In this document: positions 3,218 to 64,000 of the stretch, one piece after another
Numbering within the stretch: position 1 is the stretch's first letter
Layout of the letters: every line of letters starts with the position of its first letter
Assembly: GCA_044350515.1 (NCBI GenBank)
Contig: JBILHL010000002.1
Location: 1-64,000 of the forward strand
Direction of reading: 5' to 3'
Source of the DNA: Crocinitomicaceae bacterium
Lineage (GTDB): Bacteria > Bacteroidota > Bacteroidia > Flavobacteriales_D > Crocinitomicaceae
Length of the DNA: 64,000 nucleotides
The notes under the pieces: generated by a model
Told to the model about the DNA's origin: nothing
Seen by the model: only the letters and a program-made list of their open reading frames with translations
Database searches by the model: none
Program-made: the position numbers and the translations under genes

Positions 3218-3344
3218 TTTAGGTCAATTCACTAATTAAGTCTTTTGCCTTTTATTAACATATTCAAATCTTTTTTTCTAACTTCGAAAGTGATTTAAAG
3301 TACTGATATCAGTATTATTCACAAATCTTTCGAATAATGAAAAA

Positions 3345-5864: not shown

Positions 5865-5924
5865 TACTATTTCTAATCAACAATTCAATCCAAAATCCTT
5901 TCCGTTTTGTACCTTTGAACTTCC

Positions 5925-18099: not shown

Positions 18100-18305
18100 T
18101 TAAAGTAGCTATAAAGTCATTCTCTCATTTCTCATTCTCTCTCCGCCGCGAAGGACCTAAAATCCTAAAGTCATTCCTCATTCATCATTCTTTCCTAAAG
18201 TCTTAATGTCCTATCGTCATTCACTCATTCGTCATTTCCTCATAAAGTCTAACGTCTTAAAGTCATTCTCTCATTTCTCATTCCCTCATTCCCTCATAAA
18301 ATCCT
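18100..18305. repeat. low-complexity TCATTC/TAAAGTC-rich region; ~40-bp unit ttaaagtcattctctcatttctcattc(c)ctcatt occurs twice (around 18109 and 18258)
   Basis: Seen directly; lies in the convergent intergenic region between mscL and the VWA-like gene; ORF 18206..18394 inside it is low-complexity. Confidence 0.5.
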
Positions 18306-22599: not shown

Positions 22600-22673
22600 T
22601 GACCTTGTTAGGATTCAAACCTAAAACCTCCTGAGCCGTAATCAGGTGCGCTATTCAGTTGCGCCACAAGGCC
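22600..22673 (-). tRNA. tRNA-Arg (anticodon ACG)
   Basis: Hand fold of the reverse complement: acceptor GGCCTTG/CAAGGTC (one G-U), D-stem GCGC, anticodon stem CCTGA/TCAGG with loop TTACGGC, T-arm TTAGG-TTTGAAT-CCTAA; CCA not encoded. Confidence 0.8.
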
Positions 22674-43225: not shown

Positions 43226-44185
43226 TCAAATTTTTCGTCGACGTTTTCGGTTATTTATGTACGAATCAACGGCTTCTTTGGAAGTATACCAGACATTTCC
43301 TTCTTTATAAGCATCAATCTTTCCTTGTCTAGCCAACAGACTCAAATATTCCTGACCATAGGGCAAGCGTTCTTCTTCAATAATCGTCGTTATTGCTGAA
43401 TATTCATACGTTGAGCCAGGAAGTGCTGCCAAATAAATGTTCAAGGTACGTTCTACGGCTTGAATCATTAACAATTGAAGTTTCTTATACTGCCCATTGT
43501 TTGCTTGATTCAAAGCTTCGTAATATTTCTTCCGATCAGCTCTTAGAATAATTGCTGGAGGATAACCATTTCGCAATAAAAGTAGGTTCATTGCCAAACG
43601 AACAGTTCTTCCATTTCCGTCAAAAAAAGGATGAATCCAAACGAAACGATGGTGAAAAAGTGTCGCCAAACTGATTATATTCAACCCATCTGGATTTAAC
43701 TGAATCCATTCCACCAATTCATCAAACAATCCACTCACTTTTGATGCCGCAGGAGGTGTGAAATTTGCTCCATTAATTCGGAAATTTCCTGTTCGGATTC
43801 TTCCAGCATAATGTTCTTCAATGTTATTCAACACAATTTCGTGCAATTTCAGGATATCTATCCCGCGCACTGGTTCAGAAGCATCTGCCAATTTGTATAA
43901 AAAGGAAATGGCTTTGTGGTGATTGAACGTTTCAAAATGCTCGCGTAGACTTTTCCCTTTTACGGTCACACCTTCCTCCAGAATTAGTTGGGTTTCTCGA
44001 AGAGTAATGGTATTTCCTTCAATGGCATTGGAATTATAAGTCCATTCCAGCGCAAGATTTGCTTTGATTTTTTCAACGATAAATGATGGAAGTGGTCGAT
44101 ATGAATCCAATTCTTTTTTCTTGGATTCCAACCTTGAAAGATGAACTTTGATTTCTTCGTCTACAATAAATTGATTTCGCCACAT
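43226..44185 (-). CDS. fic: Fic/DOC family protein with C-terminal winged helix
   Basis: HPFFDGNGRTVRLAM is the Fic core motif HPFx[DE]GNGR. Confidence 0.85.
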   Translation of the reverse strand: MWRNQFIVDEEIKVHLSRLESKKKELDSYRPLPSFIVEKIKANLALEWTYNSNAIEGNTITLRETQLILEEGVTVKGKSLREHFETFNHHKAISFLYKLADASEPVRGIDILKLHEIVLNNIEEHYAGRIRTGNFRINGANFTPPAASKVSGLFDELVEWIQLNPDGLNIISLATLFHHRFVWIHPFFDGNGRTVRLAMNLLLLRNGYPPAIILRADRKKYYEALNQANNGQYKKLQLLMIQAVERTLNIYLAALPGSTYEYSAITTIIEEERLPYGQEYLSLLARQGKIDAYKEGNVWYTSKEAVDSYINNRKRRRKI

Positions 44186-44276
44186 AATATCGTTTTAACC
44201 ACAAATTTAACTATACCGATATTAACTATCAAGCATTTTCAATTTTTTCACATAAATAATTTAAAAATGAAATGAT

Positions 44277-46592
44277 TTACGATTCCCAGTGTAAATAAAA
44301 CCGGAGCACAATTGCGACCAAAGCTAAAAGAACTAAAAACGCTTGCCACGATTTATCTGTCGTTATTGCTGGTTCTGGTGCTAAACGCAAATCTTTTACG
44401 TTGGAGGTTAGTTGTAATCCCGCCCAATAGATTGGATGTGCTTGTTCGCCCGTATGCGATTTGAAGTAATTTTGTTTGGCAGTATAAAGTGCATCTTCTA
44501 CAGAAAATCCTGCCTTTAATTTTAGATAAAACTCCTCCATAATTTCTGCCGAACTCTTGTCAATTGTAGCATGGCGAGATGCAATTACAGCCTTGGCTCC
44601 ATTCTTAAATAAATTAATTTGTAAGTAATTATTTGAATAGGTATAAAACTCAAAAAAGCCAGCAAAACAATTATTCACAACAATTAATTCACGTTTACAT
44701 TTGTTTATTTTGACAGAAGACTGGATAAAATCTTTGCCTTGATCATTTAATAATATTAGATTTTTGGCGGTGCCGGTTGGTTTATAAATTGTCATATTCC
44801 CGTGACCAACAACATTTAAAATTCCATGTTTATTGAATATTGAATTAAAATTTTGAACATCATTATAAATTTTTCCTTTCCACTGATGAATTACAGAATG
44901 CATCATTTGATTCATGAAGGGTAATCTTGCCCTTTTTGGCTGATTAATATTTAAAAAATCGATTTTATTTGATATGGTACTTTTTTGGTCAATGAAAAAA
45001 TCAATAGGATTGTAAATGAATACAAAATTGAATCTTTTAGCTAAATAATTTAATTTATCAAACGAATTACCTACGGTATCAGAAATCATAGCAGGGAATT
45101 CTTGTCTAGAATCAATTGAAAGGTAAATTTTATTTATCCCTTTTATGTTTTGTTCGATTGGTTTAAAATAATGATTGTATTTGTTAAATGCCTTTTTTTT
45201 GAAATTAGACAAATTATTTATTGAAAGATCCATCGTTCCGTATTCTTCTGAATCATTAAAAGATGAAACAGTAATCCTATTTTTTGTAATTAAAATATTC
45301 TTTTTTTCTTTAATAAGATTGTAATTCATGAACAACAAAAAAGCTTCATTTTTTTTAAGTTTTTTTTGCACTTCTTTTACAATGTTTTCATTATTAAATT
45401 TACTTTTTGCTAAGTATTTATAAGAGCTAATTACATTATTTGTTAACCGAATTAGATAGAATTTATTCTTTGTTTTTTGATATAAATATTCATCTAAAAT
45501 GGCTAAAGAAATGTATGGTGAAATATTGTAAGAATCATGCGCCACATTTTTCTGACTTTTAATATATTCATCCCAATCAGCTGTTAGCGATGTAATATCT
45601 GAGTAGAATTGTTTGAATTTTTCGGCGGAAACGTTATTTATTATATCGTCACTTATTTTATATTTAATTAATGACAAGACTTGTAGAAAAGGTTGGTTTT
45701 CATTGTCATAATGAGCATTCTTTTTATACAAATAATAACATTCATTAAACACCTCATCGCCTTTTTCTTTTTCCCCATAACAATAGAAAGCTAAGGTTTT
45801 CAGCGAAAGGACGTTCATTTTTAAGTTCAAATCAGATGGATTTATTATTTGAAGTGCTTTATTATAATGGCCAATTAATTCTTTAAACAATTGATGCTGA
45901 TAAGCTGAAAATTTTTTCTGTTGTTCTTTTGTCTTTACGAAATAATTAATCATATCCAGTTTTCTAGTACCCTTACTTCTGAATATCAATGCCTCTTCAC
46001 ATGAAAAGTGTTTATAGCTTTTTAATATTAACAAGGAGGAATCAAAATAATTCATTATTGGAGCGAGGTGTACCTTTCTTGTTTTATCATAAACTAAGCC
46101 ACTTGTTAAACCTCTTCTATATAGAAAGGTTGTTCCATAAACCTGATAAATAAAATGAAACGGAACTTTAAATCTTTCATTCCAGTTTTTTCTCAGTAAT
46201 CTCATCGATTCATCAGAGAATTTAGTTGCTTTATCACCAACCATATTAAAATGCCAAAAAGCAGCTTTTTCAGCCAAGTAATAAGCTTTATAAATATCTC
46301 CTTTGTCTTTATTGAGCTGATATGCCGCTTCAGAAGCTCGTAAAAAACCATATAAATCTTCACTAAAATATAAAGCCTTAGATTTTAGAACTAGAATGGT
46401 GTATTTATCTGTACTCTTAAGAGTTTCTTTTAATAACCTATTGGCTAATATATTAGCTTGGCGGTGATTTCCTTTTTCTATTAATGATTCAATCCTGGAA
46501 ATTTGTTGTTGTACACGCTCTTTTCCTTTATTCCTCTGGAAAGAGAACAGAAAAAAAATTGAAAAAATAAGAAGCCAAAAATTGCGAAACAT
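44277..46592 (-). CDS. TPR-repeat plus CHAT (caspase-like) domain protein with C-terminal TM helix
   Basis: C-terminal LNVVGHGN (His) and LIVVNNCFAG (Cys) form a caspase/CHAT HC dyad; the N-terminal half is helical TPR-like; ATG at 46592 used (ORF extends to 46664 with GTG). Confidence 0.55.
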   Translation of the reverse strand: MFRNFWLLIFSIFFLFSFQRNKGKERVQQQISRIESLIEKGNHRQANILANRLLKETLKSTDKYTILVLKSKALYFSEDLYGFLRASEAAYQLNKDKGDIYKAYYLAEKAAFWHFNMVGDKATKFSDESMRLLRKNWNERFKVPFHFIYQVYGTTFLYRRGLTSGLVYDKTRKVHLAPIMNYFDSSLLILKSYKHFSCEEALIFRSKGTRKLDMINYFVKTKEQQKKFSAYQHQLFKELIGHYNKALQIINPSDLNLKMNVLSLKTLAFYCYGEKEKGDEVFNECYYLYKKNAHYDNENQPFLQVLSLIKYKISDDIINNVSAEKFKQFYSDITSLTADWDEYIKSQKNVAHDSYNISPYISLAILDEYLYQKTKNKFYLIRLTNNVISSYKYLAKSKFNNENIVKEVQKKLKKNEAFLLFMNYNLIKEKKNILITKNRITVSSFNDSEEYGTMDLSINNLSNFKKKAFNKYNHYFKPIEQNIKGINKIYLSIDSRQEFPAMISDTVGNSFDKLNYLAKRFNFVFIYNPIDFFIDQKSTISNKIDFLNINQPKRARLPFMNQMMHSVIHQWKGKIYNDVQNFNSIFNKHGILNVVGHGNMTIYKPTGTAKNLILLNDQGKDFIQSSVKINKCKRELIVVNNCFAGFFEFYTYSNNYLQINLFKNGAKAVIASRHATIDKSSAEIMEEFYLKLKAGFSVEDALYTAKQNYFKSHTGEQAHPIYWAGLQLTSNVKDLRLAPEPAITTDKSWQAFLVLLALVAIVLRFYLHWES

Positions 46593-46691
46593 TAAGGACA
46601 AAAGAAAGGAATTATACTGAAATATTTTTGCAGTTATGTAACTTGAAACAAAAAATAATCCCACTAACTGAAGCTGATGGTATTTAAAGTA

Positions 46692-46755
46692 AAGTTTCGC
46701 AGGATAAAAGTTCCGCAGTATTTCAAATCCTGCGGAACTTTGCCTGCGGAACTTT
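46692..46755. repeat. palindromic array of the 16-bp unit AAGTTCCGCAGGATTT (two direct plus two inverted copies), 3' of the ATPase gene
   Basis: aaagtttcgcaggat aaaagttccgcagtattt c aaatcctgcggaactt tgcctgcggaacttt; a T-rich tract follows. Confidence 0.75.
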
Positions 46756-46833
46756 AATTTAAATAGAATTTTTCAAACCTGAATCCTTTTTTTTGTCTGT
46801 CAATTTAATAGGTAAAAAACATTTACCCATTTT

Positions 46834-48144
46834 CTATTTAACCCGGCGAATCATTTCTATGGTGTAATCTGCTAGAAAAAGAGGAATATTCAACAAGCCA
46901 TCTCTGTATTGTAAATTTTTCAATGAATACCGTATTCTTAATGAAGGATTAAACTTTTCATTGTATAACGAGAGACTTCTACTTTTAACATTTTCATCGC
47001 TCTTCACTTCGATTGGAATAATTTCATTTTCAATTTGAATTAAAAAGTCAACTTCAGCAGTATTTCCAGATGTCCAATATCTAGGAGGAGTTTTTAATTG
47101 AGCAACCAAACTTTGTAGGATGTAATTTTCTATCAACGCACCTTTAAACTCAGAAAAAAGGCGATTTCCTTCTAAAAATACGCTTGGTGAAAGCTTAGCT
47201 AGGTTTCTTATAATTCCAACGTCTAAAGCATATAATTTAAATGCACTTTGATCGTCATAAGCGCTTAGTGGTAATGATGGCTTTGTATTTAATTTCACTT
47301 GATATACTATTCCTGCATTTATCAACCATTGAATTGCATCTTCATATTCTCTTGCTCTTGCTCCCGTTCGAATTAATTGATAAATGAATTTTTTGTTTTC
47401 TCTCGCAAGTTGGGCTGGCAACGAGTTAAACACTTCGCCAATTTTAGCAACGTTTGTCATAATTGGATGTTTCGCAAAATCACCTTTGTACGAAAGAATT
47501 AGATTATTTAATGTTTCGTCTGTATTTTCAAATGTATTCGAGTCGTTAAATGATTTAACAATTGCTGGCATTCCTCCTGTAATCATGTATTTTTTGAAAT
47601 GATGTAATAAATCATTAAAAAAATAGTCAGGAATGAGATCTAGTGCATCTAATTGCTCTACATACTTCGATAAAGAATTACTCCAATTAGGTAATACTTC
47701 TCGAAATGTCATTGGATAAAGTGTTAAAAATTCAACTTTCCCAACGGGAAAAGAATTGCCTGAATTTAACAAAATACCCAAAAGTGAGCCAGCGCATATA
47801 ATTGGAATTTCAGGTTTTTGTTCTGCAAAATATTTTAAGGTATTCAAAGCCTCAGGGCATTCTTGAATTTCATCTAAAATGATCAATGTTTCGCTATTTA
47901 TTTCTTTACCACTGATAAGCGAAAACGACTCAAGGATTCGATGTGTATCTTTATTTTTTTGAAAAAAATCTTTTAACTCTGGACGTTCGTCAAAGTTGAA
48001 GTAAATAAATTGAGAAAAGGCATGTTCTCCAAACCAACGCATAAGATAGGTTTTACCAACTTGTCTCGCTCCTTGCAGAATTAATGGTAACCTCTCGGTT
48101 TTGTTTTTCCATTTAATTAATTGAAGTTGTAGGTTTCTTTCCAT
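46834..48144 (-). CDS. AAA-family ATPase of the AAA_14/DUF4143 type
   Basis: Walker A ILQGARQVGKTYL, Walker B LIILDEIQE, C-terminal DUF4143-like region. Confidence 0.7.
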   Translation of the reverse strand: MERNLQLQLIKWKNKTERLPLILQGARQVGKTYLMRWFGEHAFSQFIYFNFDERPELKDFFQKNKDTHRILESFSLISGKEINSETLIILDEIQECPEALNTLKYFAEQKPEIPIICAGSLLGILLNSGNSFPVGKVEFLTLYPMTFREVLPNWSNSLSKYVEQLDALDLIPDYFFNDLLHHFKKYMITGGMPAIVKSFNDSNTFENTDETLNNLILSYKGDFAKHPIMTNVAKIGEVFNSLPAQLARENKKFIYQLIRTGARAREYEDAIQWLINAGIVYQVKLNTKPSLPLSAYDDQSAFKLYALDVGIIRNLAKLSPSVFLEGNRLFSEFKGALIENYILQSLVAQLKTPPRYWTSGNTAEVDFLIQIENEIIPIEVKSDENVKSRSLSLYNEKFNPSLRIRYSLKNLQYRDGLLNIPLFLADYTIEMIRRVK

Positions 48145-48206
48145 TTATAAGTGGGTAAAATGTGATTATTTACACAAATATAACATTTATTTTGTGATTT
48201 TAGGAA

Positions 48207-48239
48207 AAGTTCCGCAGGATTTAAAATCCTGCGGAACTT
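48207..48239. repeat. perfect 33-bp palindrome AAGTTCCGCAGGATTTAAAATCCTGCGGAACTT flanked by AAAA/TTTT (bidirectional-terminator-like), 63 bp upstream of the ATPase start
   Basis: Seen directly; same 16-bp unit as the other arrays. Confidence 0.75.
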
Positions 48240-48276
48240 TTCCCGCAGCACAATTTCATTAACTGTTACCATATTA

Positions 48277-48376
48277 CCTTGTGCACGAATTAAATGAATA
48301 AATTCAAACCATTGAAATGGTTATTGGATTATCACGAAATATCCCTTAGGTGAGGGGTTAAATCTTCACCTAAGGG
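48277..48376 (-). ncRNA. copy A of a two-hairpin structured element: conserved box CCTTGTGC.C.AATTAAATGAA, hp1 AAACCATTGAAATGGTT (48306-48322), hp2 CCCTTAGGTGA-loop-TCACCTAAGGG (48343-48376); candidate sRNA, leader or MITE-like repeat
   Basis: Three copies in the window share order and spacing, but the stems differ by compensatory changes (see findings). Confidence 0.45.
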
Positions 48377-48452
48377 ATAACCCCCAAGACAACAAATCTC
48401 AAATTATTTTGAATAACGATAATCCTTAATTTTGTGATATAAACCCGATAAT

Positions 48453-49499
48453 ATGAAATCTGTCAGTGCAATCATTTTGTTTTTTATGCTTTTCGTTTCT
48501 GGATTTGCAAGCTCGCAAGTAAGTCAAACGGATACAAACACCTATGTAATCAAAAAAAGCAATGGCACTGAATATATTGGTAAAATTATAAGTGATGATG
48601 GAAGAGAAGTATTAATAGCAACGAAGGAATTAGGAAACATCTATATACCGAAAGCTGATATTATTTCAATTAAAGTCGTAGATATTGAGAAAGAAATGGT
48701 GAATAATGAATATCGTGGTAAAGGTGTATTTACAACACGTTATCAATTTTCAACGAATGCATTTCCAATAGAAAAAGATGAAAACTATGCATTGATTAAT
48801 TTATATGGACCGGAAGTTCATTTTGCTATAAATAAGCGAATATCAATTGGATTAATGGCAACATGGATAGCAAGCCCTTTAGTTTTAGCCGTAAAATACA
48901 CCATTCCTACTTCCAATGAAAAGATCAATTTTGGATTTGGAACGCTGTTAGGAACAACTGGATATTTAAATCAAGCGAAAGGATTTGGAGGGCTACATTG
49001 GGGTATGGTTACCTTTGGAGACCGAGCTAAAAACGTAACTTTATCACTCGGATATTCTTACTTCAAACCTGGACTATCAAGATACGACACATTTTATCAA
49101 CCGGGTACTTATGTTAATGAATCCTATTATAGTAATATAATTGAAAAAGTGAATTCACCATTAGTATTAGCTCCTGTTTTAGGTATAGCGAGTATAGCTC
49201 CCGTTGGAAAAAAAGCGAGTTTTATCCTTGATGCAATGTTCATTTTAGGTAAAACAAGTGGTGAGAAAGAGCAAGATATTACCAACTATTATAACGATCA
49301 AAATCAAATAACTTACAGTGTTGTTTCGGAATTAAGAAGTGTAACGTACCCTCGAATAAATTTTGTATTTATGCCTGGGATGCGTTTCCAAAAATCTGAA
49401 ACGAAGGCCTTTCAAGTTTCTCTAGCCGGGATTATTGGCTATGCGGATGATTTATACTCATTTCCTGTGCCAATGTGTAGCTGGTTCTATAAGTTCTAA
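48453..49499 (+). CDS. putative outer-membrane beta-barrel protein (secreted, unknown family)
   Basis: Signal peptide, alternating amphipathic strands, C-terminal aromatic WFYKF ending in Phe. Confidence 0.4.
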   Translation: MKSVSAIILFFMLFVSGFASSQVSQTDTNTYVIKKSNGTEYIGKIISDDGREVLIATKELGNIYIPKADIISIKVVDIEKEMVNNEYRGKGVFTTRYQFSTNAFPIEKDENYALINLYGPEVHFAINKRISIGLMATWIASPLVLAVKYTIPTSNEKINFGFGTLLGTTGYLNQAKGFGGLHWGMVTFGDRAKNVTLSLGYSYFKPGLSRYDTFYQPGTYVNESYYSNIIEKVNSPLVLAPVLGIASIAPVGKKASFILDAMFILGKTSGEKEQDITNYYNDQNQITYSVVSELRSVTYPRINFVFMPGMRFQKSETKAFQVSLAGIIGYADDLYSFPVPMCSWFYKF

Positions 49500-49520
49500 T
49501 ACCAATTAACAAGAACAAAA

Positions 49521-49550
49521 AAATCCCACCAACCAAAGATGATGGGATTT
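49521..49550. terminator. hairpin AAATCCCA-loop-TGGGATTT just 3' of the beta-barrel gene
   Basis: 8-bp perfect stem; A7 upstream (T7 on the opposite strand). Confidence 0.4.
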
Positions 49551-49557
49551 GTGAAAA

Positions 49558-49625
49558 AAGTTCCGCAGGATTAAAGTTCCGCAGGATTTGAAATCCTGCG
49601 GAACTTTCAAATCCTGCGGAACTTT
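49558..49625. repeat. palindromic array: two direct plus two inverted AAGTTCCGCAGGATT units; 33-bp perfect core at 49574-49606
   Basis: aagttccgcaggatt aaagttccgcaggattt g aaatcctgcggaacttt caaatcctgcggaacttt. Confidence 0.75.
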
Positions 49626-49644
49626 ACTAACCGAAATAATATTT

Positions 49645-49745
49645 CCTTGTGCGCTAATTAAATGAACGAACCTCAAACCATTGAAATGGTTATTGAATTT
49701 TTGGTATTTCTCTTTAGGTTCGGATTTAAATCCGAACCTAAAGAG
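49645..49745 (-). ncRNA. copy B of the two-hairpin element: box, hp1 AAACCATTGAAATGGTT (49675-49691), hp2 CTCTTTAGGTTCGGA-tttaaa-TCCGAACCTAAAGAG (49710-49745, 15-bp perfect stem); a degenerate partial copy follows at about 49770-49850
   Basis: Seen directly; ORF 49506..49760 (84 aa) lies inside it and is rejected as coding. Confidence 0.45.
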
Positions 49746-49997
49746 AAACCACAATAACAAAAAATGGTTTTAACCATTTATCCATTAAATAATCGAAATT
49801 GAAATGGGGGTTTGATTTGGGGGTTTAGGTTTTTGAAATAAACTGAAATTTCTCAAAAAACAATTTTTTTAAAAAATCCCGCCAATATAAACTGACGGGA
49901 CTTAATCAAAATTACTTAAAACAATAAAAAATTTAAATATTAATAAAATAAATTTGAAAACACGTAATAAATAATAGTTTAAATATGGAGTAACAAG

Positions 49998-50573
49998 TTA
50001 ATTATTAGCAAAATAGTAGGCAATTTTTTGCCAAACAGTAGGTTTTATTTTCCTGTTTTTTTCCTCATAGTATGAACAGTCGACACCTTGTTGTTTTAAT
50101 TTATTTATTCCTAATTCTAATTTGTCAGATATTGCTTTTCTCTCTTTTGGGGAGGAAATATTAGAGCCTTGTACTATCAACTGTTCAATAATATTTGTAA
50201 TTTCTTCTTTACTAGTACCAAACTGTATTGAAGCAATATCCTTTATTTTAGAATCTTGTCTTTCTTTCATTAAATATTCTTGCTCCTCTCGCAAACGGTC
50301 GGCTTCAGCTTGTTTAATGTCAGCAGCAGCCATTTTTTCCATAAAACCTGGTCCAGAATTATTATTATTAGATTTTGAAGTGTAATTATCTTCTGATGAA
50401 TTATTGGATTTTTCTGAATTCTGTGAATTAAACTCATTAAGGCATTTATTACTACAAAATAGCTTAGCTCCAAAACCGAATGATTTATTATAAACCCATC
50501 CTTTAGGTGTAGGATCGTAATTCCCACTTTTATAACCTTCTTTTCCACAATGATAACATGAATAGTCACTCAT
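49998..50573 (-). CDS. hypothetical Cys-rich (CxxC...C...C) protein with Asn/Ser-rich linker and coiled-coil C-terminus
   Basis: CYHCGKEG...CSNKC zinc-ribbon-like N-terminus; weak terminator hairpin downstream at about 49870-49905. Confidence 0.4.
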   Translation of the reverse strand: MSDYSCYHCGKEGYKSGNYDPTPKGWVYNKSFGFGAKLFCSNKCLNEFNSQNSEKSNNSSEDNYTSKSNNNNSGPGFMEKMAAADIKQAEADRLREEQEYLMKERQDSKIKDIASIQFGTSKEEITNIIEQLIVQGSNISSPKERKAISDKLELGINKLKQQGVDCSYYEEKNRKIKPTVWQKIAYYFANN

Positions 50574-50702
50574 AATATATAAATTTAATTTCCCCCTACT
50601 CTTCAGCTTTTCAGGTTTCGCTCTTACTGAAAATCAGCAGTAAGTCTGTTTTGGTTTTGCAATTTTAAATCAAACAACTGCAACCAATTTGCAGTCTTAA
50701 AA

Positions 50703-51185
50703 TTATTTTGCTTGCCATTTTAAGTTCAAATTTCCAGCTTGTTTGAATTGGTAGCTGTTGCTGTTTTTGTCAAAAATTAAAGGGCACTGAAATTCGTTTT
50801 TGAGCACGTTTAAATAGTTAAACAAACTGCGTTCAGAAATTTCAAGCTGCGCTGCAAACTGAGCTGCAGAACCAGTATTACTTTGTTTTACTCCTAAATA
50901 AATGCGTTGCAAGGTTGCCAGTTGTTTATTATTAAAAACAGTATCTGTTTGTACAATCGTTTGGGCTTCTTCGTATTTCCAATTCAACGCACCATTTTCA
51001 GAAAACAGGTAGCTTTGCTTGAAATTATTCCATACAATGGGAGCGTTCAACTCCTCGCGAATAAACTTGGTGTAATTGTAAATCATTCGCTCCGAAACAC
51101 CTAATATCTTTGCAACATCAGCAGGTTTTCCCGTTTGTTTGCGCTCTACTAAATGAATAAATTTTCTCAATTTCTCTAAATGCAT
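50703..51185 (-). CDS. tandem winged-HTH DNA-binding protein (two HTH_11/DeoR-N-like repeats)
   Basis: Repeat 1 PADVAKILGVSERMIYNYTKFIREEL; repeat 2 AAQFAAQLEISERSLFNYLNVLKNEF. Confidence 0.5.
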   Translation of the reverse strand: MHLEKLRKFIHLVERKQTGKPADVAKILGVSERMIYNYTKFIREELNAPIVWNNFKQSYLFSENGALNWKYEEAQTIVQTDTVFNNKQLATLQRIYLGVKQSNTGSAAQFAAQLEISERSLFNYLNVLKNEFQCPLIFDKNSNSYQFKQAGNLNLKWQAK

Positions 51186-51505
51186 ATACCACTAAGTAGA
51201 ATGAGAAAAGAATTTGTCCCGATTACGCTACACTTTTTGCAAGCAATCGTTTTACAACTGCTTTCAACCAAAAGAAATAGATTCATTTCATTAGTGACAA
51301 TTCTACTTTCTCGCGCATCTGGCTCGCAAGATTCCACCTCAGATAGATTTTTCCATCATCGGTGCAAAGAAAAATCAAGGGAGTGCAATCAGTTTGCAGT
51401 TTGAAATTTTATTCTTTTCTAAATTATTATACTTACTAGTATGTGCCCAAATTTTAGACGTAAGGTGTTAGATGTCAATTTTATACGTTTTTGATAATTT
51501 ATAGA

Positions 51506-51597
51506 AAGTTCCTTAGGATTTCAAGTTTCGCAGGGTAAGTTCCGCAGGATTTGAAATCCTGCGGAACTTACCCTGCGAAACTTACCCTACGGAACTT
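51506..51597. repeat. nested palindromic array (3 direct plus 3 inverted units); 61-bp perfect palindrome 51523-51583 centred on G51553; directly 3' of the lptD stop
   Basis: aagtttcgcagggt aagttccgcaggattt g aaatcctgcggaactt accctgcgaaactt verified base by base; outer arms are imperfect. Confidence 0.8.
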
Positions 51598-51600
51598 TTC

Positions 51601-54138
51601 TTACAAAAACGCTGGCGGCTTACGGATTTCAATCTTCGCATCTTTAAATACGGACGAAGTATTGCGAATGCTAAACAAGAAACTTTTATTTCCTCCAATT
51701 GGCGTCCAGAAGAACGAAAGCGCCCAACAATGCATGTTGCGATTCAATGAGAAATAAAGGTTGGTCACCTCAAATTCTTGTAAATTCAAGTTTAAATTCC
51801 CAGAAATATTCCAACGTTTTGTAAAACTCATATCACCATTCAAAACCAATGTTTGCACTTGATTGTAGATTTTTGGGGAAGTAGTTGTTATATTTTGATT
51901 GGCATTAATGGTGTAAACGTGCGACAATGACATTTTCCAAGGAATATCAAAATAGATGGCGCGCTCAGGATACAACGCAAAATAGTTGAAGTCGCTATTC
52001 CAATTCGTATTCAAACGTTCACCTGTTTCCTGAATTTTTTTCCGGTCTTTTGGTGGTGCAATAGTCAATGCGGTAGTTAAACCCGTTGTTGTGAATCGTC
52101 CAAGTCCTTGATCATTCAATAAGGCATAAGCACCAATAGTTTTTCCATTCGTTTCGTTCCAGCCATAAGGACTAAAAGTAGCATTGGAAACAAAGTTTAA
52201 CCAATCAACTGGACTAATTCTCAAAGCTAGTGTGATGTTGGATAAATTCATAGAATCTTTCATAAAATCGTAATTCCCATTGATGGAAAATTGGTCGATT
52301 AAGCGTGTTTTTTTGAAGTCAGTCACGGTGTCTTTATCTGATTTATATTTTAATTCAAACGTGTTATTGATACCAAAATTCAAAAATGCCGCTTGACTCG
52401 AATTACCAACGTTGTAAATACTGCGCTCAAAAGGTGAATAAGTTACAAGCGATTGATTCACGCCCACATTTTCTGAAATTAAAGGATTCAACAAGGGAAC
52501 ATAACGAAAACCAACACTTGGAGTCATGAGGTGGCGCATTTTTGCTTTTTTCTTACCAATAAATTGATAATATGTATAAAGCATCGTTGTCAAACTCACA
52601 TTCATATTGAATTCGTGACCCATTCCATATTTTTTGATAGTATCAGTTATTGTTTTATTAGTTACAATGTCATACGATTTATCCACTTGCTGAAAGTTAA
52701 TTTTGTTACCATAATTAATGGAAGGATTGATTTTGATGGTGTTACCAATTAAGCCAAATGTTGTTTGTAGTGCCGCAGATTGCGAAATTCCATTTAAGAA
52801 TTGATCGGATATTCGTTGAAAATCACCTTGAGACAAAAGAGTATCGCTAAAATTAGAACGATTTTGACCCTCCAAATTATACGTCAAACCAATGCGAGCT
52901 ATCGTTTTTTTCCATTCTTTGTTCGGTACTTTGAAGAGATTTTTGAATGGGAAAACACGTGTTAAATTGGCATTAAAAATTGGACTAACTAAAGAAATAT
53001 TTTTTGCAAGCGAATTCTGGCGTATTGATAATTTCATTCCCATTGTCAACGGTTTTCCAGGAAATAAACGATTGATATTGATGTCAGAATTAAAGGAATT
53101 ATTAAAAAAATCAGGATTTATTGGGTCGAGGTTGTTTTTGGTGGTATTATCAGAAATGAAATTTACGTTGGAAGAAAAATTCCAATAAGGATTTGACTTT
53201 GGTTCTTTGCGATGCGACCAATTTACAATTATTTTATTTTGACTAGAACTATCAGGGAATCCTGCTCGAAACTGCTGAAAACCAACAGATAGTCTTCCTG
53301 AAAAACCATAACGTTTTGAATAATCTAAATCGTTTCGCAAACCCCAACTTCCTCTGCTGTAAAGATTGGCATAAAGTGAAGTTTGCAAATTATCATTGAT
53401 TGGAATATAGTAACCTAAATTCTGGAATCCAAATCCATACTGAGAAAGCGGGACAAATTCAGGGAACAACAAACCAGAAGTCCGTTCTTTTTGATTCGTT
53501 GGTAATAGTGCAAAAGGCAAACCAAATGGTGTTGGAATTCCTTTTACCCATAAATTCATTGGTCCTGTAACAACGCGTTCATTCGGCACAACCACGCCTT
53601 TCGACAATTGGAAATGATAATGTGGTTCCTCCAAATCGCAGGTCGTTAAACGTCCTTGTCGCAAATGAATTTCGTCGTTCGGATGTCGTTTGGCAATTCC
53701 CATGTGGAAATAAAACTCATCTTGCTTAATGGAAAGTTCTTCCAAAAATCCTTTTTTGGTCTCGGTGTTATAGCGCAATTTATGTGCGGTCACCACCTCT
53801 GAACCATCTGTAAATGTTGGAAATTCGACCTTGTTGCTATCTTTATCATACGCATAACTTGCTGAAATTTCATTGGTATTCATATCCACCAAAATATATC
53901 CTGCAGTCATGTTTACTTCGTCCATTTGGATTTTTGCGTCTCCATAAAGATGCACTTGTTTCTTTTTCAAATCGTTGTAAATAGAATCTCGAGCACTGTA
54001 GCGAATGATGCTTTCCAACGAATTATCGTTCATCACAAGCGTATCTTTCGGTACAACTTGCGCTGTAACAAAACCTTGAATGTACATTATTAACAATGTA
54101 ACGAAGAAAAGTTGTTGTATGTTGATATTCTTGGTCAA
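51601..54138 (-). CDS. lptD: LPS-assembly protein LptD/OstA-like outer-membrane protein
   Basis: 845 aa; signal peptide; OstA-like N-domain (VHLYGDAKIQMDEVNMTAGYILVD) and a large beta-barrel. Confidence 0.65.
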   Translation of the reverse strand: MTKNINIQQLFFVTLLIMYIQGFVTAQVVPKDTLVMNDNSLESIIRYSARDSIYNDLKKKQVHLYGDAKIQMDEVNMTAGYILVDMNTNEISASYAYDKDSNKVEFPTFTDGSEVVTAHKLRYNTETKKGFLEELSIKQDEFYFHMGIAKRHPNDEIHLRQGRLTTCDLEEPHYHFQLSKGVVVPNERVVTGPMNLWVKGIPTPFGLPFALLPTNQKERTSGLLFPEFVPLSQYGFGFQNLGYYIPINDNLQTSLYANLYSRGSWGLRNDLDYSKRYGFSGRLSVGFQQFRAGFPDSSSQNKIIVNWSHRKEPKSNPYWNFSSNVNFISDNTTKNNLDPINPDFFNNSFNSDININRLFPGKPLTMGMKLSIRQNSLAKNISLVSPIFNANLTRVFPFKNLFKVPNKEWKKTIARIGLTYNLEGQNRSNFSDTLLSQGDFQRISDQFLNGISQSAALQTTFGLIGNTIKINPSINYGNKINFQQVDKSYDIVTNKTITDTIKKYGMGHEFNMNVSLTTMLYTYYQFIGKKKAKMRHLMTPSVGFRYVPLLNPLISENVGVNQSLVTYSPFERSIYNVGNSSQAAFLNFGINNTFELKYKSDKDTVTDFKKTRLIDQFSINGNYDFMKDSMNLSNITLALRISPVDWLNFVSNATFSPYGWNETNGKTIGAYALLNDQGLGRFTTTGLTTALTIAPPKDRKKIQETGERLNTNWNSDFNYFALYPERAIYFDIPWKMSLSHVYTINANQNITTTSPKIYNQVQTLVLNGDMSFTKRWNISGNLNLNLQEFEVTNLYFSLNRNMHCWALSFFWTPIGGNKSFLFSIRNTSSVFKDAKIEIRKPPAFL

Positions 54139-55376: not shown

Positions 55377-56414
55377 TTGAAATTCGCAAAAGAAATAAAA
55401 GTAGGAGTGATTGCTGTTATTGCAATCGTAATCCTGGTAGCTGGAGTCAATTTTCTAAAAGGGAATAGTTTTTTTGGCGGCGATGAAAAATACATTGCTT
55501 ACTTCCCTAACTCTGGAAATATAATGGTTTCGAGTAATGTTACCCTAAACGGTGTTGTTGTTGGAAAGGTAATGTCCATCGAAAATATTCCTACCAATCC
55601 ACCTAATAGAAGGGTGAAAATTGTTTTCAGTATCCAAGACAAAAATATCAAATTACCAAAAGGTACTGTTATTGAAATTGGATCGTTAGACGTTTTGACT
55701 AAGGCGATAATTATTCAAATACCCCTGAATTTCAACAAAGGCTATTACAAGGCTGGAGCTGTTCTTCCTGGCAAATTGTCAATTGATATGATGTCGCAAG
55801 TGAAGCAATACGCAGACCCGATTTCACAGCGCTTGCAAGCTATGATGAGTTCAATTGACAAAATGGTTGTCTCACTTGGTGCTTTTTGGGATACAACAGC
55901 AACCTCCGAAATTGAAGGAAGTTTACGCCAAGTAAAAATCACAATTGAAAAATTAGGGAACGTTGCTGAAGAAATCGAATCTTTCGTTGGAGAAGAAAAG
56001 ATTCAGTTTGCGAAAATCATGACTAATGTTGAAAACATAACAGGAAATTTGAAGAAAAGTAACGATCAAGTAACAGCAATTATAGGTAACACTAAGAAAA
56101 TCTCCGACGATTTAGTAACTGCTGATTTTAAAAGTGTGGTCTTAGACGCTCAAACAACCATTAAGAAATTGAACTTAGTTTTAGCTGATGTAGAAAACGG
56201 AACAGGCACAATGGGTAAATTATTGAAAGATGAAAAGCTTTATACCGAATTAGTTGAAACGAACAATGAGCTACAAAATCTTGTTAATGATTTGCAATTG
56301 CATCCTGAAAGATATATCCATTTTTCAGTATTTGGTGCAAAAACTAAAGGTGTACCGTTGACATCTCAAGAAGAAAAGAAGTTTAGAAAATTATTGGATA
56401 CCATCCCAGATTAA
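55377..56414 (+). CDS. mlaD: MlaD/MCE family protein
   Basis: N-terminal TM plus MCE domain (VTLNGVVVGKV), long helical C-terminus. Confidence 0.7.
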   Translation: MKFAKEIKVGVIAVIAIVILVAGVNFLKGNSFFGGDEKYIAYFPNSGNIMVSSNVTLNGVVVGKVMSIENIPTNPPNRRVKIVFSIQDKNIKLPKGTVIEIGSLDVLTKAIIIQIPLNFNKGYYKAGAVLPGKLSIDMMSQVKQYADPISQRLQAMMSSIDKMVVSLGAFWDTTATSEIEGSLRQVKITIEKLGNVAEEIESFVGEEKIQFAKIMTNVENITGNLKKSNDQVTAIIGNTKKISDDLVTADFKSVVLDAQTTIKKLNLVLADVENGTGTMGKLLKDEKLYTELVETNNELQNLVNDLQLHPERYIHFSVFGAKTKGVPLTSQEEKKFRKLLDTIPD

Positions 56415-62458: not shown

Positions 62459-62507
62459 ATGTAGTGAGAATTAGAGAAATGATAGAATAGTGCGTGCAAA
62501 ATGAATT

Positions 62508-63677
62508 TTAATAACTCATCCCAAAATGCCAAAGTGGAATGGTATTCATGTAACCATATTCGATGTCGTCTTTCACAATGAAAGCATTTTTTAAGTCAAA
62601 GATTTGCTTTTTGGTTTTACTTTTTCCTCCCACCTCAAAAATAGCGTCCTCAATTTGAAAATCCGCCGAAATGTGTGAAGTAACTTTGTGTTCCAAACTC
62701 ATTTGATTGAGAAAAAAGGTTTCTCTTACATTTCCAAGATCTGTTGCGGTCGAACCTATTGCATACATCAAATTTGGATTGTCCAAATATATTTTATTTG
62801 TTTTACCCAGCATTCTTAAGCTTTCCGTTTTATCTCTCAACTGCATACTGATTCCAGCCTTTTCAAAATAATATAGAAAATCAACAATCTGATTTCTATG
62901 CACATCAACCAACTCTGCAATCTTTGTGAAATTGGGTTTGAAAGGAACACTTTTCGCAATAATTGAAAGTAAAAGTTTTAGCTTATAAGCTGTTGACACG
63001 TTCATTTTTGCATAAATTGGAATATCTGTTTCAATGGTCATATTCAAAATGTTATTCAATTTTTGAGTATAATCTGGCTCATTAAAAAAGGGATAATAAC
63101 CTTGTTTTAAATAGTTTTTAAAATGCATTAAAGGAAATTCTATACCTTTAAATTCTACTTTATTTTGCAGGATTTCTTCCAAGGAATAGCTCTTCAAACT
63201 CAGTCCTTGCGAAAGATTTAGGTATTCTCTAAATGATAAGCCTTGCAAGTGATACGTTATCACTCTTCTGCTCAAATCATCCGTTCCTTTGTATAAATCT
63301 AAAATGGATGAACCTGTAAAAACAATCTTTAACTTTGGTAAATTGTCGTACATCATTTTGATTTCCTTTGACCAATTTGGGTACTTATGAATTTCGTCAA
63401 TGAATAGATTTTCACCACCATTCAACTGAAACTGATAAGCTAAATCATACAATGTATTTGTCGAGAAATAAAAGTCATCGGCACTTACGTATAATGCTTT
63501 TGTGATTTCATAGTTAAGTTTTATTTGCTGCAATAATAGCGTAGTTTTACCAACTCCTCTTGCGCCAAGAATAGCAACAATTCGATTTTCCCAATTTATT
63601 TTCGGATGCAAATACCTTAAAAGTGTCGTGTCAGTTCTAGCTAACAAAGCTCTATATTGTGCAATTATTCTTTCCAT
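62508..63677 (-). CDS. AAA-family ATPase of the AAA_14/DUF4143 type (second copy)
   Basis: Walker A ILGARGVGKTTLL, Walker B LFIDEIHK; paralog of 46834..48144. Confidence 0.7.
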   Translation of the reverse strand: MERIIAQYRALLARTDTTLLRYLHPKINWENRIVAILGARGVGKTTLLLQQIKLNYEITKALYVSADDFYFSTNTLYDLAYQFQLNGGENLFIDEIHKYPNWSKEIKMMYDNLPKLKIVFTGSSILDLYKGTDDLSRRVITYHLQGLSFREYLNLSQGLSLKSYSLEEILQNKVEFKGIEFPLMHFKNYLKQGYYPFFNEPDYTQKLNNILNMTIETDIPIYAKMNVSTAYKLKLLLSIIAKSVPFKPNFTKIAELVDVHRNQIVDFLYYFEKAGISMQLRDKTESLRMLGKTNKIYLDNPNLMYAIGSTATDLGNVRETFFLNQMSLEHKVTSHISADFQIEDAIFEVGGKSKTKKQIFDLKNAFIVKDDIEYGYMNTIPLWHFGMSY

Positions 63678-63832
63678 TTTATGTTATTTGAAACAAAAAT
63701 AGCTATTTTCGCTGAATTTATTTAGCGATTAATTAATTTATTGATAATTTAATTTAGCTATTATTAATTTTTATGCTGAATCATAGTAGCGAAATTAGCG
63801 TATTTGGAATTTGAATTGTTGTGTTAAATGGG

Positions 63833-63898
63833 AAACGATTGAAATCGTTATTACTTTTGTTGCTCTCTCATAGGTTTGGGTTTAAATCCGAACCTATG
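63833..63898 (-). ncRNA. copy C of the two-hairpin element: hp1 AAACGATTGAAATCGTT (63833-63849), hp2 CATAGGTTTGGG-tttaaa-TCCGAACCTATG (63869-63898), 156 bp upstream of the second DUF4143 ATPase gene
   Basis: Seen directly; same orientation and spacing as copy A relative to its ATPase gene. Confidence 0.45.
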
Positions 63899-64000
63899 AA
63901 GAATTATATTCACCAACCACTTTAATGGTTTACAATTTTATTTTTTGTTAACGTAAAAAAATAAGAGAAAAAAAAAGGCATAAAATTTTCACTAAATTCG

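Follow-up and report, generated by a model that had tools for sequence, protein, structure and literature searches.

A covarying three-hairpin repeat adjoins genes for IS200-like Y1 proteins of the 'subclass 1.2' type in Flavobacteriales and Cytophagales and has orphan copies in a Crocinitomicaceae genome

Short extragenic hairpin repeats that flank a low-copy gene for a Y1 (HUH) transposase are known from the REP/BIME-RAYT system of E. coli (the 'REPtron', TnpA-REP) and from REPIN-RAYT of Pseudomonas, and REP/RAYT is the standard example of long-term coexistence between a transposase and its miniature repeats within one lineage. To our knowledge, the Y1 enzymes linked to it so far belong to class 2 and come mostly from Proteobacteria. 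In insertion sequences of the IS200/IS605 type (IS608, ISDra2), subterminal hairpins occur on one strand; they are directly oriented at the two ends, and terminal inverted repeats are missing. A further group, 'subclass 1.2' of the TnpA-Y1 proteins from Bacteroidetes and Cyanobacteria, is characterised by the signature DH[VI]H, WQ and Y---Q--HH, a length of ~148 aa and a conserved C-terminal tail; the sections of the 2018 survey that deal with this subclass record it as without an associated REP, give a mean of 1.7 copies with 36% identity between intragenomic copies, and describe it as 'not sharing IS properties' (Quentin et al., 2018; PMC6006769). Since on that account subclass 1.2 was neither IS nor REP-associated, its function was left open (PMC6006769). 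The survey's description of 'atypical secondary structures' in subclass 2.6 (Bacteroidetes) and class 3 (Planctomycetes/Acidobacteria) concerns non-canonical repeats that have no GTAG tag, flank low-copy Y1 genes and occur in copies elsewhere (PMC6006769).

The window analysed here is a 64-kb stretch of DNA (64,000 nucleotides) from a Crocinitomicaceae bacterium. A sequence-only reading had singled out three related copies of an element in it, here called A, B and C, and these stand far above chance: the hp1-type 20-mer occurs three times against 0.17 expected, the box shared by A and B twice against 0 expected, and the hp2 core at 49715-49740 and 63871-63896, again against 0 expected; covariance models give the copies E-values of 1e-8 to 1e-21. 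All three copies are intergenic, all lie in variable regions, and they occur in both orientations relative to the neighbouring genes, the intergenic regions that hold them being divergent in some cases and convergent in others. The GC skew of the window gives too noisy a profile for telling the leading strand from the lagging one. In the following list, the second score of each copy comes from an independent covariance model built from Y1-adjacent copies only.

63826-63950, plus strand: copy C, full and in canonical orientation (107.8 bits; 87.4 bits with the Y1-adjacent-only model)
63834-63849, plus strand: hp1 of copy C, AACGATTGAAATCGTT
63868-63899, plus strand: hp2 of copy C, with two G-T wobbles on the plus strand
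63915-63930, plus strand: hp3 of copy C, AACCACTTTAATGGTT, with a T-rich tail after it
49656-49786, minus strand: copy B, full (120.3 bits; 94.4 bits with the Y1-adjacent-only model)
49763-49778, minus strand: hp1 of copy B, AATGGTTAAAACCATT on the minus strand
49707-49748, minus strand: hp2 of copy B, a perfect 21-bp palindrome around TTTAAA
49676-49691, minus strand: hp3 of copy B, AACCATTTCAATGGTT on the minus strand
48287-48415, minus strand: copy A (81.9 bits; 56.4 bits with the Y1-adjacent-only model)
48340-48379 and 48307-48322, minus strand: hp2 and hp3 of copy A, both intact
about 48393-48408, minus strand: hp1 of copy A, decayed, its pairs broken in the model alignment
48277-48298, minus strand: box TTCATTTAATTCGTGCACAAGG, 3' of hp3 of copy A, common to A and B only
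49645-49666, minus strand: box TTCATTTAATTCGTGCACAAGG, 3' of hp3 of copy B, common to A and B only

The unit measures ~100-130 nt and holds three hairpins, not the two of the plan first proposed, which had missed the third hairpin (63915-63930 in copy C). The small hairpin hp1 has the sequence AAnnnTTGAAAnnnTT, hp2 is a stem of 14-21 bp whose foot is TAGG/CCTA and whose centre is TTTAAA/ATTAAT, and hp3 reads AACCATTTyAATGGTT, or more loosely AACCAyTTyAATGGTT. The foot and the TTAA centre of hp2 are conserved; in the alignments the foot is yTAGG paired with CCTAr, GTAGG being seen in the L016 copies only, and the unpaired 5' GT[AG]G tag of canonical REP is not conserved. The hairpins hp1 and hp3 are alike in inverted orientation and form a pseudo-dyad, and the covariance model scores both strands, with 120 bits for B on the minus strand against 85 on the plus strand, 108 for C on the plus strand against 76 on the minus strand, and 82 for A on the minus strand against 61 on the plus strand; the corresponding values with the independent model are 94/80, 87/72 and 56/54. 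With A and B thus placed on the minus strand and C on the plus, the hairpin of A and B (ACCATTGAAATGGT) that had been matched with hp1 of C is hp3 read backwards, so that the C-G to G-C swap quoted for hp1 compares non-homologous hairpins. The box CCTTGTGC.C.AATTAAATGAA, earlier taken as common to all copies, is present in A and B only, lies outside the family consensus and is absent from the copies of other genomes. A degraded fourth copy had been placed at 49770-49850; its first bases belong to the true hp1 of B (AATGGTTTTAACCATT, 49763-49778), and the rest yields no model match at E<=10. An hp2-like remnant after a toxin-antitoxin pair (L002, ~3650) likewise has no significant model match. 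The element does not look like a 'plain' MITE of the TIR/TSD type. Its alignments, in which its ends are undefined, show neither conserved termini nor duplications at the flanks, and the copies compared define neither cleavage sites nor filled versus empty sites.

The proposal that the stems show structure-preserving covariation holds strongly once the copies of other genomes are added. Across 16 copies 95.2% of the cells are paired, compensatory (double) changes occur in 18 of 26 pairs (69 double-change cells), the observed covariation values are reached by none of 500 shuffles, and slid controls pair at 23-47%. These compensatory changes point to selection on the folded structure. Folded as single-stranded DNA, the copies reach z = -3.5 to -8 against shuffles, with copy B at -30.5 kcal/mol and z = -8.0. 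G-U pairs account for only 5 of 413 cells, which together with the good scores of both strands is as expected for DNA-level palindromes. The comparison with Rfam that the sequence-only reading had proposed places the element in no family: at the gathering score tRNA alone passes in the whole window, and at E<=10 there are only generic long-hairpin (miRNA-model) matches, all under the gathering score. Between the structured RNA and the MITE-like family that were originally considered, the MITE/REP-like side is favoured by the linkage to Y1 genes, and nothing specific for RNA was found. Rfam shows no known REP family here, but by its association with Y1 the element falls into the REP/MITE class. 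The most fitting interpretation is a small non-coding DNA repeat of the type to which single-strand HUH transposases bind, as with bacterial REP/REPIN elements, rather than a new structured RNA.

This linkage emerged from a DNA-pattern scan without protein information, which revealed the same element in a Lishizhenia MAG, where four copies (one truncated), all gene-oriented, flank a 148-aa PF01797 Y1_Tnp gene. In the reverse look-up of Y1 homologues (51-74% identity, Flavobacteriales to Cytophagales) the element adjoins the gene in nine of nine distinct loci (L016, L022, L023/24, L025, L026, L027, L028-30, L031-33 and L034), in L026 as a simpler hp2-type variant. It usually starts at or just past the Y1 stop codon, and in the clade of P0001-like proteins typically at the stop. 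Both sides of the gene carry modules in L016, L025, L026, L027, L031 and L034, those of L016, L025, L031 and L034 being in direct orientation, and on the 3' side only in L022, L023 and L028. Such 3'-side-only elements speak against a REP-like reading, as they would be compatible with a function in the 3' UTR or as a terminator, too. The model built from Y1-adjacent copies alone finds B (94 bits, E 7e-15), C (87 bits) and A (56 bits), as well as an orphan copy in L015 at 105 bits. Furthermore, the hairpin sequences shift with the protein clade: P0001-like proteins are accompanied by hp2 TAGGTGyGGG and hp3 AACCATTTyAATGGTT, and P0040, P0113 and P0085 (P0040 and P0113 are 75% identical) by hp2 ATAGCCCACGG and hp3 AACCGTTTyAACGGTT. 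In the manner usual for REP/BIME elements, the element forms a tandem array of 7 x ~122 nt in L027, the gene end and element are partially duplicated in tandem in L022, and an internally deleted Y1 remnant lies between elements in L034. Contigs with P0113 differ only upstream of a tandem-repeat array. Orphan copies without a nearby Y1 gene, likewise usual for REP/BIME, occur in L015 and in the window, where tblastn finds no Y1 gene, and there are orphan copies in L026 as well.

Among genome contigs, which did not include the source genome, the composite pattern gave five matches, two of them true (L015 and L016) and three due to chance (Caenarcaniphilales, Peptoniphilus and Geminocystis); its four matches in metagenome contigs are all chance. 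In viral contigs the hp1-only pattern matched 10 times, always without hp2 and hence by chance, the 15-mer AGTTCCGCAGGATTT had 72 single matches, uninspected and presumed chance, and no Y1 relatives were found. The small number of relatives recovered with exact hp1/hp2 patterns indicates that the family is sparse or the patterns are too strict. Two candidate Y1 or HUH remnants were rejected. The 191-aa ORF upstream of B, considered as a decayed HUH protein, has neither HUH nor Y motifs and no Pfam match. The A/B box and the DNA upstream of orphan hp1 were considered as remnants of the 3' end of the Y1 gene; an nhmmer profile made from six such ends detects the L022 duplicate at E 2e-16 but gives no match beside A, B, C or the L015 copy.

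In an alignment of 12 Y1 homologues (144-161 aa) the motifs MPDH[VIL]HCLF, KFxWQ and YIxxQKxHH are invariant, the HUH motif being DHVH and the Y motif YIQHQKQHH. The protein scores 82.3 bits against NCBIfam transpos_IS200 (cutoff 55) and does not pass REP_Tyr_transpos (40.6 bits, cutoff 80), and its closest solved relatives in the PDB are the TnpA proteins of ISDra2 and IS608 (E 5e-11 to 4e-9). Judged by its motifs, it carries the TnpA-Y1 'subclass 1.2' signature and resembles that subclass, as far as the survey's account of it goes, in DH[VI]H, WQ, Y---Q--HH, a length of about 148 aa, occurrence in Bacteroidetes and low copy number; unlike in that account, a conserved hairpin element stands beside the gene at every locus examined here (PMC6006769). 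The enzyme looks functional and low-copy. Each exact Y1 protein was encountered in a single genomic context, with housekeeping genes around it, an observation that is weak because it comes from metagenome contigs. The called genes and Pfam matches of the Y1 loci examined include no tnpB or omega-RNA partner.

Copies A, B and C are thus probably orphan copies of a three-hairpin DNA repeat that is the companion of a low-copy IS200-like 'subclass 1.2' Y1 (HUH) ssDNA transposase in Flavobacteriales and Cytophagales. How the enzyme would bind, cleave and mobilise the element can be inferred from analogous enzymes, the TnpA of IS608/ISDra2 and the TnpA-REP of E. coli. The element would fold when the DNA is single-stranded, e.g. 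at the replication fork, the Y1 enzyme would bind the long hp2 hairpin and would cut and rejoin ssDNA near the small conserved hp1 and hp3, and the element could in this way be copied or moved without terminal inverted repeats or target duplications. If recognition relies on hairpin shape and a few fixed bases, the stems may drift along with the enzyme and change only by paired substitutions, which would explain the compensatory changes.

Like REP/RAYT, the element flanks a low-copy Y1 HUH gene as a short extragenic hairpin repeat, occurs as orphan intergenic copies, in clusters and in tandem arrays, keeps its stems by compensatory change and co-varies in sequence with the enzyme clade, and like a REPIN the whole unit is approximately two-fold symmetric. 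By contrast, its partner is of class 1 (IS200-like; Y---Q--HH) and that of REP/RAYT of class 2 (Y---NP), it has three separate hairpins over ~100 nt where REP has a single palindrome of 20-40 nt or a doublet of inverted REPs, the 5' GT[AG]G tag, unpaired in REP, is not conserved and TAGG lies within the stem, and the gene-flanking copies are direct rather than inverted. IS200/IS605 elements (IS608, ISDra2) encode the proteins that come nearest to the Y1 enzyme in sequence and structure and partly share the arrangement of subterminal hairpins on one strand, direct at both ends and without terminal inverted repeats, but the gene described here is low-copy and in one stable context, and the same module occurs on either side or on one side only, whereas those elements have distinct left and right ends. 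The 'atypical' repeats of subclass 2.6 and class 3 are similar in being non-canonical, in having no GTAG tag and in flanking a low-copy Y1 gene with copies elsewhere; by the survey's description they belong to different enzyme subclasses (2.6: NH[LIV]H, YIH[QN]NP, ~179 aa) (PMC6006769).

Copies A and B lie next to members of a second palindrome family, with GTTCCGCAGGATT arms; its sites in this region, and a fragment of the element, are:

46691-46760: palindrome of the GTTCCGCAGGATT family, lying between the stop of ATPase1 and the start of the CHAT gene, without the three-hairpin element
48190-48259: GTTCCGCAGGATT-arm palindrome with A- and T-runs on either side, beside copy A (DNA fold -22.5 kcal/mol, z = -11)
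49557-49644: nested double palindrome of the GTTCCGCAGGATT family, beside copy B (DNA fold -36.9 kcal/mol, z = -14.6)
51520-51603: palindrome of the GTTCCGCAGGATT family shortly past the LptD stop, without the three-hairpin element
62459-62487, plus strand: 29-nt fragment TGTAGTGAGAATTAGAGAAATGATAGAAT, from blastn and alignment to L015

Direct repeats of ~230 nt (77% identity) lie on either side of a 348-aa gene; each consists of an GTTCCGCAGGATT-family palindrome, the box and the element, the left one with A and the right one with B. In the orthologous L015 locus TGTAGTGAGAATTAGAGAAATGATAGAAT makes up the 5' flank of the element and the 5' half of hp1; in the window the ATPase2 gene lies between the fragment and copy C, and the ATPase2 segment is missing from the L015 locus. 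The island genes around the copies include Fic, CHAT, AAA_14/DUF4143 and HTH genes.

Several of these observations could be read differently. If the elements were the ends of an autonomous IS200/IS605-type IS, and A, B and C its MITE-like deletion derivatives rather than part of a domesticated REP/RAYT-like partnership, it would be in keeping that the protein falls in transpos_IS200 and not in REP_Tyr_transpos, that its best PDB matches are IS transposases, that L016, L025, L031 and L034 have modules in direct orientation on both sides as at IS200/IS605 ends, and that an internally deleted Y1 copy lies between elements in L034. However, each exact Y1 protein has its single context among housekeeping genes, no module is found upstream of the gene in L022, L023 and L028, the homologues differ by 26-49% between genomes, where near-identity is usual for a spreading IS, and the survey's entries for the subclass report low copy number (mean 1.7), 36% intragenomic identity and 'not sharing IS properties' (PMC6006769), so that we consider such an origin unlikely. 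The gene bracketing in the window recalls an array of gene cassettes whose recombination boundaries would be integron-attC-like or another kind of hairpin site and which would shuffle small genes of the defence or toxin-antitoxin type: each gene between 46.7 and 51.6 kb is bracketed by repeated palindromes, the ~230-nt direct repeats with A and B surround the 348-aa gene, the ATPase2 segment that L015 does not have is bracketed by the hp1 half-site and copy C, and the island holds Fic, CHAT, AAA_14/DUF4143 and HTH genes. Yet nine scanned proteins around the copies include no integrase or recombinase, the R''/L''-L'/R' boxes of attC (RYYYAAC...GTTRRRY) are absent from the sites, the 'cassettes' lie in both orientations and have promoter-like contexts of their own, and elsewhere the element is tied to the Y1 gene in ordinary chromosomal contexts, not arrays, which makes a cassette system very improbable.

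A structured RNA, either a cis-acting module in the 3' UTR of Y1 transcripts that would act as stabiliser or terminator and have been duplicated elsewhere or, as the sequence-only reading had suggested for A and B, a minus-strand sRNA ending at the GTTCCGCAGGATT palindrome, is in our judgement rather improbable. The element lies on the Y1 coding strand, usually right after the stop codon, and would therefore be transcribed with the gene; a terminator-like palindrome with a T-run follows A and B on the minus strand, B has a second terminator-like site at 49550-49521, two G-T wobbles are tolerated on the canonical strand of C, and covariation statistics cannot tell RNA from ssDNA. Against an RNA, no Rfam family is reached at the gathering score and only miRNA-model noise appears at E<=10, G-U pairs fill 5 of 413 cells, orphans occur in both orientations and in divergent and convergent intergenic regions, promoter-like sites are no commoner than in shuffles (21 found, 21.3 expected), and tandem arrays and transposase linkage are unlike RNA genes.

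With the DNA repeat as the preferred reading, the element illustrates that hairpin covariation alone does not imply RNA, and the two covariance models allow it to be annotated in Flavobacteriales genomes, where such repeats might pass for small RNAs or terminators. For an orphan enzyme, the hairpin module that stands next to each gene examined, conserved and co-varying, is a concrete candidate substrate. The chances are about even that it is the missing cognate substrate of subclass 1.2, in which case an IS200-type (class 1) transposase would have been domesticated a second time and independently into a REP/RAYT-like, vertically inherited partnership across Bacteroidota, with an unusual tripartite recognition module of a long binding hairpin between two small mirror-image hairpins. 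In a bolder version of this idea, the enzyme-repeat pair may also drive the gain and loss of adjacent small genes, such as AAA_14/DUF4143 ATPases and toxin-antitoxin pairs.

The element of the window is a unit of three hairpins, as shown by copies from other genomes, and not of two as the sequence-only reading had it. The hairpins are, in canonical order:

hp1: stem of 6-7 bp with the pattern AA-nnn-TT / GAAA / nnn-TT, for example AACGATTGAAATCGTT, AATCGTTGAAACGATT and AATGGTTGAAACCATT
hp2: about 20 nt past hp1; stem of 14-21 bp with a conserved TAGG...CCTA foot and TTTAAA or ATTAAT at its centre
hp3: about 20 nt past hp2; AACCATTTyAATGGTT, nearly invariant, often followed by a T-rich tail (alignments, consensus fold)

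The covariance model R1 places the window copies as follows:

48287-48415, minus strand: copy A, inverted; hp1 decayed in the R1 alignment
49656-49786, minus strand: copy B, inverted; true hp1 at 49763-49778
63826-63950, plus strand: copy C, canonical orientation

The three copies that had been reported are indeed present at the stated places. The 20-mer AAACSATTGAAATSGTTATT occurs three times in the window (0.17 expected), the conserved box beside copies A and B twice (0 expected), and the hp2 core at two loci (0 expected). As single-stranded DNA they fold with z = -8.0, -3.5 and -3.7. The observation was real, but the orientation was wrong and the anatomy incomplete. Both hp1 and hp3 are palindromic and each resembles the reverse complement of the other, while hp2 is palindromic as well, so that the unit is close to two-fold symmetric and fits an alignment either way round, which misled the first description. 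The R1 scores separate the strands (copy B, 120 bits minus versus 85 plus; copy C, 108 plus versus 76 minus; copy A, 82 minus versus 61 plus), so that C is canonical and A and B are inverted, and the hairpin called hp1 in A and B is in fact hp3. What was taken for a degraded copy at about 49770-49850 includes the true hp1 of B, but its remainder (49790-49850) has no model match even at E<=10. No further copies are found in the window by covariance model at E<0.05; at 56218-56312 (plus strand), within the ORF 55377-56414, both models give a weak match (21-22 bits, E about 0.08) that is taken as noise. Comparison with Rfam, proposed earlier as a check, returns nothing for the copies: in the whole window only a tRNA (22600-22673) passes the gathering score, and at E<=10 the element region matches nothing but miRNA models, generically as long hairpins and always below threshold.

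The proposal that a folded structure is under selection was right, as covariation over 16 copies from 11 loci indicates. With the three-helix structure imposed (a 13-copy version was also run), standard pairs fill 95.2% of cells versus a shuffled mean of 77.1%, and 0 of 500 shuffles reach the observed value, a test that overstates significance because the sequences are related. Both sides have changed in 18 of 26 pairs (69 cells), and the covariation score is 0.474 versus 0.146. When the partners are slid by 1-3 columns, pairing falls to 23-47%. Among the copies hp1 alternates between CGA/TCG, TCG/CGA and TGG/CCA, hp2 varies at nearly all positions, with AGG/CCT and a single inner G-C pair as the exceptions, and the Lutibacter/L031 clade has G-C in place of A-T in hp3. 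A real structure is argued for by the slid controls and by how many independent pair types occur, and the near absence of wobble pairs (G-U in 5 of 413 cells), together with the good fit on both strands, favours selection at the DNA level.

Relatives were sought in one scan of species-representative genomes, whose pattern prescribed no more than the TAGGT/ACCTA foot and a part of hp1; of the five loci that it matched, two are genuine. One, from a Flavobacteriales MAG (L015), is the orthologue of the copy-C region (80-89% nucleotide identity) and carries one orphan copy. The other, from a Lishizhenia MAG (L016), has two full copies upstream of a 148-aa ORF and one full and one truncated copy downstream, all in the orientation of the ORF, whose product is a PF01797 Y1_Tnp protein (E 4e-29), that is, an IS200-like HUH transposase. 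In the L016 copies GTTCCGCA stands between hp2 and hp3 (e.g. 3895-3885, minus strand). In the reverse direction, DNA was retrieved around eight of the 588 homologues of this protein (E<=1e-10), and the element, in L026 as simpler hp2-type hairpins, lies beside the Y1 gene every time:

L022: two copies downstream, the second preceded by a duplicate of the last 80 nt of the gene
L023/L024: single copy, starting at the Y1 stop codon
L025: full copies on both sides
L026: simpler hp2-type hairpins on both sides, one further copy 1.4 kb off
L027 (Lutibacter, 57% identity): full copy downstream, seven tandem hp2-hp3 units of ~122 nt upstream
L028-30: single copy at the Y1 stop codon
L031-33: hp2-hp3 upstream, full copy downstream
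L034 (Fulvivirga, Cytophagales, 53% identity): copies on both sides

The Lutibacter array (5180-5990), directly upstream of the gene, is BIME-like, each unit holding an hp2-type and an hp3-type hairpin. The L031-L033 contigs carry another tandem array at 2100-2390, made of the 21-nt unit aaatgaacatccaaaagcnac and placed immediately 5' of the hp2-hp3 module and the Y1 gene. The number of units varies among contigs, and in contigs with different upstream genes homology begins inside the array. Downstream of the intact Fulvivirga gene, an internally deleted Y1 remnant (L034, 3640-3730) lies between two elements, in which AIWATKERMPFISKNVESKVYKFMK, N-terminal residues 12-35 when read against the homologue alignment, is joined to the last four codons (VNDK and stop). 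A second covariance model, R2, built from Y1-adjacent copies only as a guard against circularity, scores B at 94 bits (E 7e-15), C at 87, A at 56 and L015 at 105, with the same strand preference for the window copies as R1. No Y1 gene is found by tblastn within the 64-kb window. Hairpin sequence follows the enzyme: P0001-like proteins occur with TAGGTGyGGG and AACCATTTyAATGGTT, the type of the window copies, and the proteins P0040, P0113 and P0085 (P0040 and P0113 are 75% identical) with ATAGCCCACGG and AACCGTTTyAACGGTT.

In NCBIfam the L016 protein reaches 82 bits for transpos_IS200 (cutoff 55) and remains below the REP_Tyr_transpos cutoff (40.6 bits versus 80), and its best solved relatives are the TnpA proteins of ISDra2 and IS608. 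Twelve homologues share invariant MPDH[VIL]HCLF (the HUH motif), KFxWQ and YIxxQKxHH. Where the 2018 survey describes TnpA-Y1 subclass 1.2, it gives the signature DH[IV]H, WQ, Y---Q--HH, a median of 148 aa, occurrence in Bacteroidetes and Cyanobacteria, and a mean of 1.7 copies per genome with 36% intragenomic identity (Quentin et al., PMC6006769). Judged by sequence, the Y1 proteins beside the element carry this signature. The survey lists no REP for this subclass; its automatic REP search demanded a GT[AG]G tag (PMC6006769), which most of the present elements lack. None of the other papers searched ties subclass 1.2, or Flavobacteria, to such repeats. Each exact Y1 protein looked up here has one genomic context, among housekeeping genes, which is consistent with a gene inherited vertically at low copy number rather than with an IS that spreads.

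Copies A and B each lie within a direct repeat of ~230 nt (77% identity) made up of the element, the box and a second-family palindrome, and the two repeats flank a 348-aa gene (48453-49499). In the second family, 16-nt units of AAAGTTCCGCAGGATT form nested inverted arrays, in which 1-2 direct units precede 1-3 inverted ones. A- and T-runs on either side make the arrays resemble bidirectional terminators, and their folds are very stable (z = -11 to -15). The family occurs at four sites, so placed that every gene or gene pair in a 5-kb stretch lies between two of them:

46691-46760: second-family palindrome
48190-48259: second-family palindrome
49557-49644: second-family palindrome
51520-51603: second-family palindrome

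Among the other retrieved loci the family is found only in L001, a contig of the same strain; the core of its palindromes is the 8-mer GTTCCGCA that also stands in the L016 spacer between hp2 and hp3, possibly by coincidence. GC content is low (0.29-0.33) across 43226-51600, where Fic, CHAT-domain, AAA_14/DUF4143 and HTH genes lie together with two genes without Pfam hit; set amid housekeeping genes (LptD, 51601-54138), this stretch resembles a variable or defence-type island. Elsewhere in the window, a 30-nt repeat, TAAAGTCATTCTCTCATTTCTCATTCTCTC, occurs in three copies at 18112-18287 (100- and 46-nt spacing). An AAA_14(/DUF4143) ATPase gene starts 130-160 nt away from each of copies A and C, and genes of this kind are found at:

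46834-48144, window
62508-63677, window
2719-3849, L023
794-2038, L028
13716-14915, L026

In L023, L026 and L028 they are <=3.3 kb from the Y1 gene, and the five places span 0.15-3.3 kb from the element or its Y1 gene; this proximity looks commoner than chance and may be a real association. Copy C also adjoins an overlapping, toxin-antitoxin-like gene pair (76 and 61 aa, no Pfam hit; L002, 3687-4210, just past the window end at about 64000-64520; L015, 1384-1826), which the element precedes in the window and follows in L015, so that local order has been rearranged around it.

The nearest alternative, an autonomous IS200-type IS with MITE derivatives, would suit the class of enzyme and the modules in direct orientation on both sides of the gene at several loci, but it is unlikely given the single contexts of the Y1 proteins, the one-sided placement of the module at some loci and the low copy number stated in the survey's subclass description (PMC6006769). 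That the element is a structured RNA is less probable still: at the Y1 loci the element is invariably part of the gene's 3' UTR, and a terminator-like palindrome comes next after it at A and B, but it has no Rfam relative, no promoter signal exceeds shuffles, G-U pairs are scarce and orphan copies occur in both orientations. A role of the repeats in cassette recombination, suggested by the bracketing of the island genes, seems very improbable, as no recombinase is found among the nine neighbouring proteins scanned and attC-like features are absent.

The best identity for the element is a REP/REPIN-like single-stranded DNA hairpin repeat with a class 1, subclass 1.2 Y1 enzyme as its partner. 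Junctions at three places hint at candidate break sites: the truncated L016 copy breaks off right at hp2's 5' foot (between cacgt and AGG), the L022 tandem duplication has its junction within a few bases past hp3, and the ATPase2 segment, present in the window and missing from the orthologous L015 locus, is bracketed by copy C and a 29-nt piece (62459-62487) that equals the flank of the L015 element together with the 5' half of its hp1. Binding of hairpins with nearby cutting and rejoining of single-stranded DNA is established for the TnpA of IS608 and ISDra2 and for E. coli TnpA-REP. By analogy, hp2, once folded in single-stranded DNA, would be the binding site of the Y1 enzyme, with cutting and rejoining close by, and recognition would depend on hairpin shape and a few fixed bases. 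Recognition of this kind would keep stem complementarity strict while sequence drifts freely, and the mechanism would also account for the co-variation of the hairpins with the enzyme clade, the tandem arrays and orphan copies, and the fact that no terminal inverted repeats or target duplications are visible.
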